Shown in pieces: positions 5,061 through 7,403 of a DNA stretch of 41,547 nucleotides. Source of the DNA: a virus (lineage: Duplodnaviria; Heunggongvirae; Uroviricota; Caudoviricetes); IMG/VR virus record IMGVR_UViG_2529292882_000020, positions 1 through 41,547 of that record; one strand, 5' to 3'. The position numbers and the translations under genes are program-made. Every line of letters starts with the position of its first letter. Position 1 is the stretch's first letter. Below the pieces are notes generated by a model that was not told the origin of the DNA, ran no database searches, and worked only from the letters and a program-made list of their open reading frames with translations.

Positions 5061-5423
5061 TTAACGACCTGCTGCGCGGAGTTTTCCGTCAGGTTCACCG
5101 GCAAGAGTCAGTAACTGTCCCTGGTCTTCCTGCAGAATAGTCAGGCGACCACCGCGATTGACATACATCGGCGTTTCGGTGGTGTCTTCTTCGGAAATTT
5201 TCCCGCGGTTAGTCGGGCGAACATATGAGAGTTTGTGTTTGATTTTCACACGGTTCTCATCAAATGGTTCGATTTCCAGGTTGAGTGAGACCTTACCTTT
5301 GGTTTTCGTGTTCATCACACCGGAAGCGACTTAACTGAGAACTGCGCCGATTTTGGTTTCAAATACGCCGCCGTCCAGCTCCCCGATAAATGCCTGCACA
5401 TCAGTACTGCGTTCGCTAGCCAT
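5061..5423 (-). pseudogene. yfdP-like early gene interrupted by in-frame TAA (codon 31)
   Basis: ATG at 5423 with GAGGAG RBS; 30 codons then TAA (5331-5333); same frame continues into the 85-aa ORF 5061..5318; read-through length would be 120 aa. Confidence 0.5.
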
Positions 5424-5471: not shown

Positions 5472-5560
5472 ACAAAACAGAGAAGAACACCTGCGGTGGC
5501 AGCCGCCCGGATGGATTGGGTTATGAGCCCGTCGTCCGGTGATGCTCTTCTCTGTTTTGT
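5472..5560. repeat. perfect 15-bp inverted repeat (ACAAAACAGAGAAGA / TCTTCTCTGTTTTGT) closing a 59-nt GC-rich loop
   Basis: seen directly at 5472-5486 and 5546-5560; lies in a 5424-5860 stretch with no credible ORF. Confidence 0.6.
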
Positions 5561-5861
5561 AAAAAGGACGGTACCAGCCGGAAGCAAGGGTACAAACTGG
5601 TACCGCCAGGACTACATACAGCATAAAGTTGTGGTGCCGGGTGCCTCCCGGTGCCTGGCGAAGGTTGCACACCAGACGGGTGGGTATCCACAGAAGGTCG
5701 ACTGTCAGCCTCAACCTTAACCCGCGTGCGCTGAGCCGCATTCACCACAACGCTAAGGATTCTCTTTGGTTGAAAATACTTAGCTGTTATGTGCCTGTCT
5801 TTTCACCACTTCAGGCTCGGTGGTATCTTGGTGTTTTCATATAGCCAAGAAGGAAATAGTT

Positions 5862-6053
5862 ATGACCAAAGAAGAAAAAATTCTTTATTTATTCCAACTA
5901 TCGGTTAAGACTCACACTGCATATCAGACTGCTGCCATGACATCAGATAAAAATTACAGTACGTCAGAAAACCCGATAGACGACATAAGCAAGCTTTACG
6001 ATAAGTTCGAAGCACTACTCGATAAAAAGTTTGCTGAGGCTGGGCTTGAGTGA
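5862..6053 (+). CDS. small hypothetical protein (63 aa)
   Basis: ATG at 5862 preceded by AAGGAAA; AT-rich; 3' end overlaps the convergent ORF 6015..6221. Confidence 0.3.
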   Translation: MTKEEKILYLFQLSVKTHTAYQTAAMTSDKNYSTSENPIDDISKLYDKFEALLDKKFAEAGLE

Positions 6054-6221
6054 TTGTTGAATAATCGACAAAACCCAACTTAAATTTTCGTCAGTGGGCT
6101 CGATGCCATGTGCGGTGAGCTCACTTTTCAAAACTCCAAGTAATTCAGAGCTGATTTTCAATATATCTGCTTGATTTCTAACTATTCCCACTTTTTCCTC
6201 CCTTGGTCTACGCGCGGTCAT
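6015..6221 (-). CDS. small hypothetical protein (68 aa, or 58 aa from GTG at 6191); first ORF downstream of putative pL
   Basis: N-terminus MTARRPREEK is Arg-rich; internal AGGGAGG + GTG alternative start; occupies the position N holds in lambda. Confidence 0.3.
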   Translation of the reverse strand: MTARRPREEKVGIVRNQADILKISSELLGVLKSELTAHGIEPTDENLSWVLSIIQQSLKPSLSKLFIE

Positions 6222-6399
6222 GTTTTACGCCCAAACGACTTCACAGTTATTGTTTAAAATCTGGACTTTCATTTCATACACCTGCTTTAACATGAGTGCC
6301 TGGTGGCACAACATGACTCAACGAATCATCCTAGACTTCATATGCCCCAGGCGGCTACTTCGTGGGCGTCCTGCCTGTTCGTTATCTTTGATATAAAAT

Positions 6400-6413
6400 C
6401 TAACTTAACTTAG
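6400..6413. promoter_or_regulatory. putative OL operator half-site pair (CTAACTTAACTTAG) within a leftward TTGCCA-17-TAGATT promoter
   Basis: same CTAAG-N4-CTTAG-type palindrome as the two sites between cI and cro. Confidence 0.4.
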
Positions 6414-6478
6414 TTATTATGGCAAGAGAAAACACCAAACTTTTCTTAGTTCGGTGCCTTAGTTAGAGAAGAGAGGTC

Positions 6479-7105
6479 TTAGAGTTCGTATTGAACTCCT
6501 TTGACTACACCAATGATAAGGCAATTACCATTGATAGGGATGTTGGGATACCGAGGATTTAATGGCACTAAAAACTTTTGAGGGCCATCGATGACTAATT
6601 TTTTTACTGTAGCTTCGTTTGTTCCATCAAGTCGAGCGATGACTATTTTTCCATGACGAGGTTCTGCATCTGGATCTACAATCACTGTTGCGCCTTCTGG
6701 TATTGTTGGGAGGCCATTAGGGTTAGTCATGGAGTCACCTTTAACCTCTAATGCAAATGAGTTATCACCAATCTTTAGTGATGTATCTACCCACTTGTCC
6801 ACTTCACTAAACACTTCTGCTGCCCTGCACTCAGTAAACTGCCCAGCCTGAACCCACGATATTACAGGAACTCTGCGCATGTTTGTGACGAGTTTGCCTT
6901 CAAACTCAGCACCATAAAGAATGTAATCTATTGACGTATTGAAGAACTTCGCTAATTTCGAAAGTGCCTCCCCACCAGGGGTATTGATGTCTTTCTCCCA
7001 GTACCCCACAGCAACGTCGCTTACTCCACAAAATTTACCCAATTCTTTCTGGGACGTTCCGGTAACTCTTCTCAGAGCTTTTATACGCTGACCAACCGTT
7101 TCCAT
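6479..7105 (-). CDS. cI: CI-type repressor (XRE HTH + S24 LexA-like autopeptidase domain)
   Basis: 208 aa; N-terminal HTH (TSQKELGKFCGVSDVAVGYWE), C-terminal GDSM...KK Ser-Lys dyad region; divergent from cro. Confidence 0.85.
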   Translation of the reverse strand: METVGQRIKALRRVTGTSQKELGKFCGVSDVAVGYWEKDINTPGGEALSKLAKFFNTSIDYILYGAEFEGKLVTNMRRVPVISWVQAGQFTECRAAEVFSEVDKWVDTSLKIGDNSFALEVKGDSMTNPNGLPTIPEGATVIVDPDAEPRHGKIVIARLDGTNEATVKKLVIDGPQKFLVPLNPRYPNIPINGNCLIIGVVKGVQYEL

Positions 7106-7202: not shown

Positions 7203-7403
7203 ATGACAACTGACGATATCGAAAGCTACTTCGGCAGTATTGAGAAAGTTGCTGCTTTTTTCGGCATAACAACTGAAGCCGTTTATCAGTGGCGAAACCG
7301 TCCGGGCCAGTTAATTCCAAAAGGACGTGCAGCAGAAGCTGCATATAGAACTTGCGGACGGTTGCCATTTAAACCTGAGCTTTATGAAAAATCTAATGGA
7401 TAA
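7203..7403 (+). CDS. cro: Cro-like HTH repressor
   Basis: 66 aa; HTH (IEKVAAFFGITTEAVYQWRNR); GGAGG RBS; divergent from cI. Confidence 0.7.
   Translation: MTTDDIESYFGSIEKVAAFFGITTEAVYQWRNRPGQLIPKGRAAEAAYRTCGRLPFKPELYEKSNG

Follow-up and report, generated by a model that had tools for sequence, protein, structure and literature searches.

The immunity region of a lambdoid prophage in Escherichia coli, contained in a stretch of 41,547 nucleotides (nt) from the IMG/VR virus record IMGVR_UViG_2529292882_000020 (referred to as the window in the following), harbors two small genes, gene A on the minus strand (6015-6191) and gene B on the plus strand (5862-6053), which converge on each other and overlap at their 3' ends. 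Both are real protein genes, and the pair is a mobile accessory cassette of the moron type, which shows a mosaic presence between otherwise collinear phage genomes. We assume, with a probability of roughly 0.4, that it is a self-contained cassette in which the lysogen produces B and induction leads to A, that the two are mutually exclusive, and that A possibly counters B. The architecture is the best supported part of this model, and its mechanistic part is what we infer from it.

The original prediction had called a minus-strand open reading frame (ORF) of 68 amino acids (aa) at 6015-6221 and a plus-strand ORF of 63 aa at 5862-6053, and both reading frames are present. The minus-strand product has to be corrected to 58 aa, since its conserved start is the GTG at 6191-6189, from which the gene runs to the TAG at 6017-6015. 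This GTG is preceded by the Shine-Dalgarno sequence GGGAGG (6202-6197) in the spacing GGGAGG-N5 (aaaaa)-GTG, the diverged A homologs of 56-64 aa all begin where V11 of the 68-aa ORF aligns, and every aligned start (GTG or ATG) in the relatives has a Shine-Dalgarno sequence upstream. Homologs of both proteins are found by single-sequence search down to 64-70% identity and by profile searches down to ~45% for A and ~30-40% for B, whereby the profile search with B against 1.84 billion representatives returned 16 clusters only. Selection was assessed with the Nei-Gojobori method outside the overlap, against seven diverged DNA copies from Kluyvera, Atlantibacter, Klebsiella and metagenomes. The ratio of nonsynonymous to synonymous substitution rates (dN/dS) is 0.06-0.39 for A and 0.03-0.19 for B, with dS near or beyond saturation in the comparisons of both genes. 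Substitutions are most frequent at the third codon position, with 0.46 vs. 0.29 and 0.18 at the other two positions in A, and 0.455 vs. 0.19 and 0.11 in B. Moreover, stop codons interrupt all five alternative frames in most relatives. Because of the dN/dS values, the third-position peak and the stops in the other frames, A and B are both genuine protein-coding genes. The original prediction would have failed if neither ORF were conserved among related prophages; both are conserved, co-inherited and under purifying selection.

A is an acidic protein with an isoelectric point (pI) of 5.2, a grand average of hydropathy (GRAVY) of 0.21, a single Arg within its first 22 residues and no membrane-spanning stretch. 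AlphaFold2 (AF2) predicts a helical hairpin with helices at residues 2-27 and 34-47 and a mean predicted local distance difference test score (pLDDT) of 74. B is acidic as well and soluble (GRAVY -0.56, no membrane-spanning stretch), and is predicted by AF2 to form a two-helix hairpin with helices at residues 3-27 and 38-59 (mean pLDDT 89). A matches PHROG 15476 and B matches PHROG 2605, both of which are families without functional annotation. A relationship of the two proteins as diverged paralogs was rejected, as hhalign gave a probability of <1%. In public annotation A is called in roughly 100 contigs, usually in the over-extended 68-aa form, vs. >1,000 contigs for B, and RefSeq annotates B as hypothetical protein (WP_000159356.1) and A almost never. 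Two small protein families, which are mostly ignored or named "hypothetical" in current annotation, are therewith added.

The over-extended form of A is the one that was originally described as having an Arg-rich N-terminus. However, the ten Arg-rich codons MTARRPREEK (6221-6192, minus strand) are not coding and belong to the 5' leader of A, including its Shine-Dalgarno sequence. In SfV orf33 they correspond to codons 22-33, relative to which 2 nt have been lost and a stop codon has arisen, and the extension is missing from all diverged A homologs. Upstream of it lies a mini-ORF of 22 codons (6291-6223, minus strand; MLKQVYEMKVQILNNNCEVVWA followed by a stop), which matches the first 21 residues of SfV orf33 and marks a mosaic junction. 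Together, the mini-ORF and the MTARRPREEK stretch align to approximately the first 33 codons of SfV orf33. Judged from these alignments, the Arg-rich stretch is a decayed gene fragment, similar to SfV orf33, which now serves as the untranslated 5' leader of A. The 68-aa ORF is therefore also not the first frame behind the early leftward promoter pL, as had been assumed, since the orf33 remnant and a structured leader RNA (6384-6318) precede it.

On the opposite strand, B is antisense to the pL operon. Its ribosome binding site had been rated as good, which agrees with the Shine-Dalgarno sequence AAGGAA 6 nt before its ATG. Upstream of B a block at 5793-5861 (plus strand) is more strongly conserved in the relatives than the B coding sequence, even where the B protein is only ~40% identical. 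We infer from its sequence that this block is a candidate promoter and 5' untranslated region (5'-UTR) of B: it contains a -35 element TTTTCA (5800-5805), an inverted repeat ACCAC-N10-GTGGT (5805-5824), an extended -10 element TGGTATCTT (5821-5829) and a hairpin CTTGG..CCAAG (5828-5850), followed by the Shine-Dalgarno sequence. In the copy of this 5'-UTR hairpin found in e14 the arms are GCTGG..CCAGC, so that both sides have changed and the pairing is kept. The designation of B as an antisense-encoded peptide is thus not appropriate, as B is an ordinary protein-coding gene, in front of which a conserved block of its own is located. Gene A, for its part, has no promoter of its own within the cassette and depends on pL.

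The 3' overlap of the two genes, which had been estimated at ~39 nt, comprises exactly 39 nt (6015-6053). It is dual-coding, with the codons in register and position 1 opposite position 3, and its length is kept between 27 and 39 nt across all contexts inspected, which comprise Kluyvera, Atlantibacter, Klebsiella and metagenomic contigs. Within the overlap the third-position diversity amounts to only 0.06 in A and 0.16 in B, vs. 0.40-0.49 elsewhere. An extra-constrained stretch of 14 codons follows inside A, opposite the 3' flank of B (6054-6095): here, the third-position diversity of A is 0.19, compared to 0.49 in its N-terminal part, and in B the diversity does not decrease in a similar way opposite the 3' flank of A. 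This stretch is a candidate for the 3' end of the B transcript or for an antisense pairing zone, and the asymmetric constraint fits B being a separate unit with its 3' end embedded in A, and A being part of a read-through operon. A plus-strand hairpin spans the stop codon of B and is followed by ACTTAAATTTTC. Hairpins at the 3' end of B are predicted in each relative, the U-rich tail in the closer group only. Single-sequence folds of the overlap are stable, with z-scores of -2.4 and -3.6.

According to the BLAST similarity to relatives, the cassette is 418 bp long and extends from ~5793 to ~6210, so that it consists of the block of ~70 nt, B, and A with its Shine-Dalgarno sequence. The pair is found in prophages of Escherichia, Kluyvera, Atlantibacter and Klebsiella, and A and B are convergent and overlapping in every retrieved genomic context, down to ~45% protein identity. 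For counting the co-inheritance, 112 loci with the pL leader RNA and enough downstream sequence were used: 20 of them contain A and B, one contains B with a truncated A, and none contains A alone. The neighbors of the cassette vary, with at least five repressor types on one side and YfdP, RdgC or ParB-like proteins downstream. Altogether, 63 out of 5,426 complete E. coli genomes carry it. Among 87 unbiased IMG/VR contigs with the leader RNA, the A family represents the first gene in four (~5%), and at least 32 unrelated families of small ORFs occupy this first position behind the leader. The region between the repressor and N is a recognized hotspot for morons (PMC7067206). The region of the cassette is not discussed in the paper on SfIV.

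Two further prophages carry different pairs at the same place. Genomes of the K-12 lineage gave a match to the first 55 nt of the cassette, and in e14 that block is located directly upstream of ymfI, which converges on ymfJ with a 3' overlap of 63 nt (retrieved locus L149, 1501-2253). The gene ymfJ is the first gene behind the repressor and a copy of the leader RNA (72 bits with the covariance model R1, see below) and is the positional analog of A. In SfV, orf33 overlaps an unannotated rightward ORF of 81 aa by 83 nt (retrieved locus L003, 3490-4112). This ORF (L003, 3562-3807) belongs to PHROG 3311 and has the same promoter block in front of it, and the leader RNA of SfV scores 88 bits with R1. 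The SfV record lists a "putative terminator" (L003, 3542-3574) across the ribosome binding region and the start of the 81-aa ORF. Similar to A and B, both ymfJ/ymfI and orf33/81-aa ORF are convergent and lie in the same slot, between the same leader RNA and the rightward block. The proteins of these two pairs are unrelated to A and B, except that PHROG 2982 joins YmfJ-like and A-like parts. Thus, together with A/B, three unrelated convergent overlapping pairs occupy one slot with the same two non-coding borders. The members of PHROG 2982 (119 aa) resemble residues 1-42 of YmfJ at the N-terminus (E 6e-11) and residues 13-58 of A at the C-terminus (E 2.6e-4), which suggests, at the level of sequence, modular domain shuffling among the proteins of the first pL slot. 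In a time course of the SOS response of K-12, ymfJ was strongly induced late, which was attributed to control by a CI-like repressor (PMC11002266). The YmfJ protein was detected in K-12, and ymfI showed a weak SOS response (PMC11002266). In many enterobacterial prophages of this group, e14 of K-12 among them, the first early-left position can therefore be regarded as a cargo slot that is repeatedly filled with overlapping pairs on opposite strands. It is conceivable, yet in our opinion doubtful, that it represents a docking slot for interchangeable convergent pairs and thereby an unrecognized class of prophage two-gene switches, in which a lysogen effector would be opposed by a pL-driven antagonist with exclusivity enforced by collision, and that the leader RNA would in addition be a new cis element that passes the terminator without an N protein.

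The right boundary of the slot is the structured pL-leader RNA of 67 nt (6384-6318, minus strand), which is predicted to consist of a closing helix P1, a small hairpin H1 and a hairpin H2 with the conserved 12-nt loop GGCRUAYGAAKN. The closing helix and hairpin covary strongly: in an alignment of 86 distinct variants 97.8% of the cells are paired, vs. 79% in shuffled and 20-42% in slid alignments, and 228 double-sided changes are counted vs. 63 in the shuffles, with none of 500 shuffles reaching the observed values. The covariance model R1 of the leader finds a single copy in the window (88.9 bits) and no copy on the pR side within the window, and a comparison with Rfam gave no family match. 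The RNA is present in SfV, SfII, SfIV, ST64B, mEp460, mEp237, phiNP, ZF40, YeP1, e14 and T5-like Providencia phages, and it has been retained behind promoters that belong to many different immunity types. Upstream of it, a sigma-70-like promoter of the pL type, TTGCCA-17-TAGATT (6425-6397, minus strand), is overlapped by an operator-like site of the type CTAAG-N4-CTTAG at 6400-6413, and a second site is located at 6436-6449. The site recurs at OR, and all matches with at most one mismatch are found either at pL or in the cI-cro intergenic region. Because the matches are confined to these two places, the earlier assignment of pL/OL to about 6400 is reasonable. In relatives of other immunity types the spacing between a promoter and the leader RNA that follows it is the same. 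Judged from sequence, the leader is a candidate cis-regulatory or antitermination element. It resembles the put RNAs of HK022 and HK639 insofar as these are also structured RNAs of ~70 nt directly downstream of pL, and HK639 has an annotated putL-like copy at pL only, like the single leader copy in the window, which provides a precedent for an antiterminator RNA restricted to pL. However, the leader differs from these put RNAs by its closing helix with two hairpins, and an identity with them was rejected, as neither BLAST nor R1 gave a match to the pL and pR regions of HK022 or to the putL-like RNA of HK639.

Downstream of the cassette, between it and yfdP, a strong intrinsic terminator is predicted on the minus strand (stem 5566-5607 followed by U5; -27.5 kcal/mol, z-score -3.7), which is the first one of the pL operon. 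Since, on the pL strand, the cassette is closely followed by this terminator, A belongs to the immediate-early segment of the operon.

In the model that we favor, pL would be repressed in the lysogen and rightward transcription of B would start at an extended -10 promoter that belongs to B itself. Upon induction or infection, transcription from pL would yield A as an immediate-early product and would at the same time run head-on through the B unit, so that B would be shut down through colliding transcription and through antisense pairing that covers the shared 3' ends or more. The two proteins would consequently be made in opposite phases of the life cycle. By analogy to sieB/esc/sas of P22, to prophage defense genes with a cognate self-immunity and to accessory loci near the repressor (PMC7067206), the most likely logic at the protein level may be that A, as a small acidic helical hairpin, binds and neutralizes B or the target of B, whereby the own lytic growth would be spared the effect that B has in the lysogen. 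If A and B indeed act in opposite phases and on each other, the cassette would offer a compact and tractable model for how lysogen-phase functions are carried without harm to the own induction.

The closest known counterpart is the sieB locus of phage P22. There, a gene with a promoter of its own is expressed in the lysogen and is antisense to the pL operon, and induction of pL gives an antisense RNA together with a small protein through which the phage spares itself, as reportedly described by Ranade and Poteete in 1993. The sieB gene encodes the membrane protein SieB and, in the same frame, the internal product Esc. The geometry of A/B matches the sieB/esc/sas arrangement, as B is antisense within the pL operon; by analogy, a lysogen-expressed gene would be opposed by pL transcription that yields both an antisense RNA and a self-sparing small protein. 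However, there is no similarity in sequence or fold, and B has no family match that would indicate homology to SieB. A and B are furthermore separate soluble proteins encoded on opposite strands with 39 nt of shared coding sequence. With sas, sieB and esc a precedent for prophage exclusion with a pL-derived antisense RNA is given (PMC12197685). Convergent units with a 3' overlap and mutually antisense transcripts are also found in cII/OOP of lambda and in pR/pL of coliphage 186, and they are the basis for the proposed exclusivity; in contrast to OOP, which is a non-coding RNA, both strands of the A/B locus encode conserved proteins. Further examples of mosaically distributed accessory genes next to an immunity region are rexAB of lambda and bstA of BTP1 (PMC7067206). 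These are located on the repressor transcript upstream of pL, whereas the A/B cassette is located downstream of pL with one gene per strand, and there is no homology of A and B to rexAB or bstA.

Several observations weigh against this model. The locus that keeps B next to a degraded A shows that B is not strictly in need of A. The candidate -35 element of B matches the consensus at four of six positions, and a scan for consensus promoters did not call the B promoter. A terminator for B was considered and rejected, because the hairpin at its 3' end is weak and the U-tailed form is not conserved in distant relatives; likewise, the idea that the overlap forms a conserved RNA structure or acts as a bidirectional terminator was rejected, as there is no covariation and the fold is broken in a distant relative. 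B is small, soluble and acidic and therewith unlike known exclusion or abortive-infection effectors, and neither A nor B has an informative match in Pfam, NCBIfam, PADLOC, PDB profiles or with Foldseek in PDB and BFVD, of which Foldseek is uninformative here because of the simplicity of helical hairpins with 58-63 aa. Finally, the overlap could be mere genome compaction. This last point is the core of the main rival explanation, which we consider somewhat unlikely: two unrelated cargo genes would share the slot without any functional coupling, with A as an immediate-early accessory protein, e.g., for anti-defense or host takeover, and B as an independent gene for lysogenic conversion. The filling of the slot by at least 32 unrelated families of small genes, as in anti-defense and accessory islands, would be in agreement with that, as would the nature of A, which is small, acidic and, by its position, the first gene expressed. 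The locus with B and a truncated A, and a cassette encoding a ClpX-type zinc finger, which inserts beside the pair or occurs without it, point in the same direction. However, A and B occur together in 20 of 21 loci and A never alone, the pair stays convergent and overlapping down to ~45% identity, and three unrelated pairs of the same geometry in one slot are hard to explain without a function at the level of the pair.

The two specific functions that had been proposed for the pair fit the data less well. It was suggested to be a toxin/antitoxin-like module at the locus where lambda carries rexAB, and with respect to an accessory two-gene module this is in agreement with the mosaic distribution. 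A classical toxin-antitoxin or abortive-infection module, either of type I with a 3'-overlapping antisense RNA or of type II, is nevertheless improbable. The convergent geometry with overlapping 3' ends does resemble type I loci of the txpA/RatA and fst types, and the module is small, mobile, prophage-borne and located within a defense hotspot. On the other hand, type I would be at odds with two partners that are both translated proteins under purifying selection and both soluble, neither of them being hydrophobic or having a hydrophobic stretch, and type II with genes that are convergent instead of forming a co-directional operon and with the lack of a DNA-binding domain in either protein. 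Neither A nor B matches any toxin-antitoxin or defense entry in PADLOC, Pfam or NCBIfam. We give hardly any credence to the second proposal, that A is an N-like antiterminator as known from lambda and B an antisense-encoded peptide or regulator of A. Like N in lambda, A is the first conserved gene behind pL and lies before the first strong terminator, which is positional evidence only; the 68-aa ORF opens with MTARRPREEK, and behind the leader of a Klebsiella relative a perfect boxA of the rrn type, CGCTCTTTAACAA, is present. However, with the conserved start at GTG 6191 the Arg-rich codons are outside of the conserved coding region and part of the decayed orf33 fragment, and the real A protein is acidic and without an Arg-rich motif. 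In the window no boxA within three mismatches is present near pL or pR, and the number of matches is at chance level. The hairpin loop of the leader has 12 nt instead of the 5 nt of a boxB loop, and its single copy has no counterpart at pR, where a second site would be expected from lambda. AF2 predicts a folded helical hairpin for A and not a disordered protein of the N type. Moreover, A is absent from ~95% of the phages with the same leader and operon and is thus dispensable across the phage group. A as an antiterminator of the lambda N type was therefore rejected on the basis of start-codon conservation, charge, missing nut sites and patchy distribution. As all phages of this group share the leader but not the first gene, read-through of the operon is more plausibly due to the leader than to A; if the operon needs antitermination past the terminator at 5566-5607, the leader would be the better candidate. 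A tempting mis-annotation as "N-like" is herewith removed, and the structured leader RNA becomes a candidate for control at the operon level.

The boxA of the Klebsiella relative is located ~17 nt behind the leader (retrieved locus L009, ~6745-6760, minus strand) and is followed by ~400 nt of GC-rich sequence without a called gene before the A homolog. On the plus strand of the window, the reverse complement of the first part of the leader (6362-6378) resembles a terminator, with a hairpin and a subsequent T-rich run. It could stop rightward B transcripts before pL and thereby avoid antisense transcription into cI. Its single-sequence fold is no better than that of shuffled sequences.

The position of the first gene behind the pL leader can also be occupied by a small protein with a C4 zinc finger of the ClpX type (PF06689). 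The zinc-finger gene adjoins A in E. coli 1332KP (retrieved locus L017, 4187-4390, minus strand), and in Klebsiella P0056 the zinc finger is fused in frame to an A homolog, resulting in a protein of 111 aa. A functional link between A and the zinc finger was rejected, as the finger is an independent cassette and A and B are present in only two of nine finger loci; where the zinc-finger genes occur without A and B, they have various C-terminal extensions, none of which is A-like. The association is therefore a weak lead.

The window begins with a segment of the E. coli chromosome with proA and the tRNA-Thr gene thrW (1369-1444), followed by a lambdoid prophage similar to SfV, SfII and e14. The prophage is integrated at thrW, and the host of the cassette is an SfV/e14-like lambdoid prophage. 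The region is identified by a gene for a cI-type repressor with a helix-turn-helix and an S24 peptidase domain (6479-7105, minus strand), of which an identical gene is listed as LexA family protein in RefSeq. A cro-like gene (7203-7403, plus strand) and a CII/YmfL-like gene are located nearby, and the early-left operon yfdP-yfdT lies on the leftward side of the cassette. Between the cassette and yfdP, the region 5558-5773 (minus strand) resembles the RNA STnc100 (Rfam, 39.6 bits, E 1.6e-6), with a score below the gathering score of 47, and it ends in the intrinsic terminator at 5566-5607. In RefSeq this non-coding region is covered by a pseudogene for a "frameshifted hypothetical protein". A partial match is also present at the equivalent place of ST64B, for which transcriptomics reported the induction-responsive non-coding RNA STnc1310, downstream of cI. 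Compared to TW10722 and SfV, yfdP contains a nonsense change from GAA to TAA at codon 31 (5331-5333, minus strand), and the gene is therefore either truncated in the window or restarted at the GTG at 5318.

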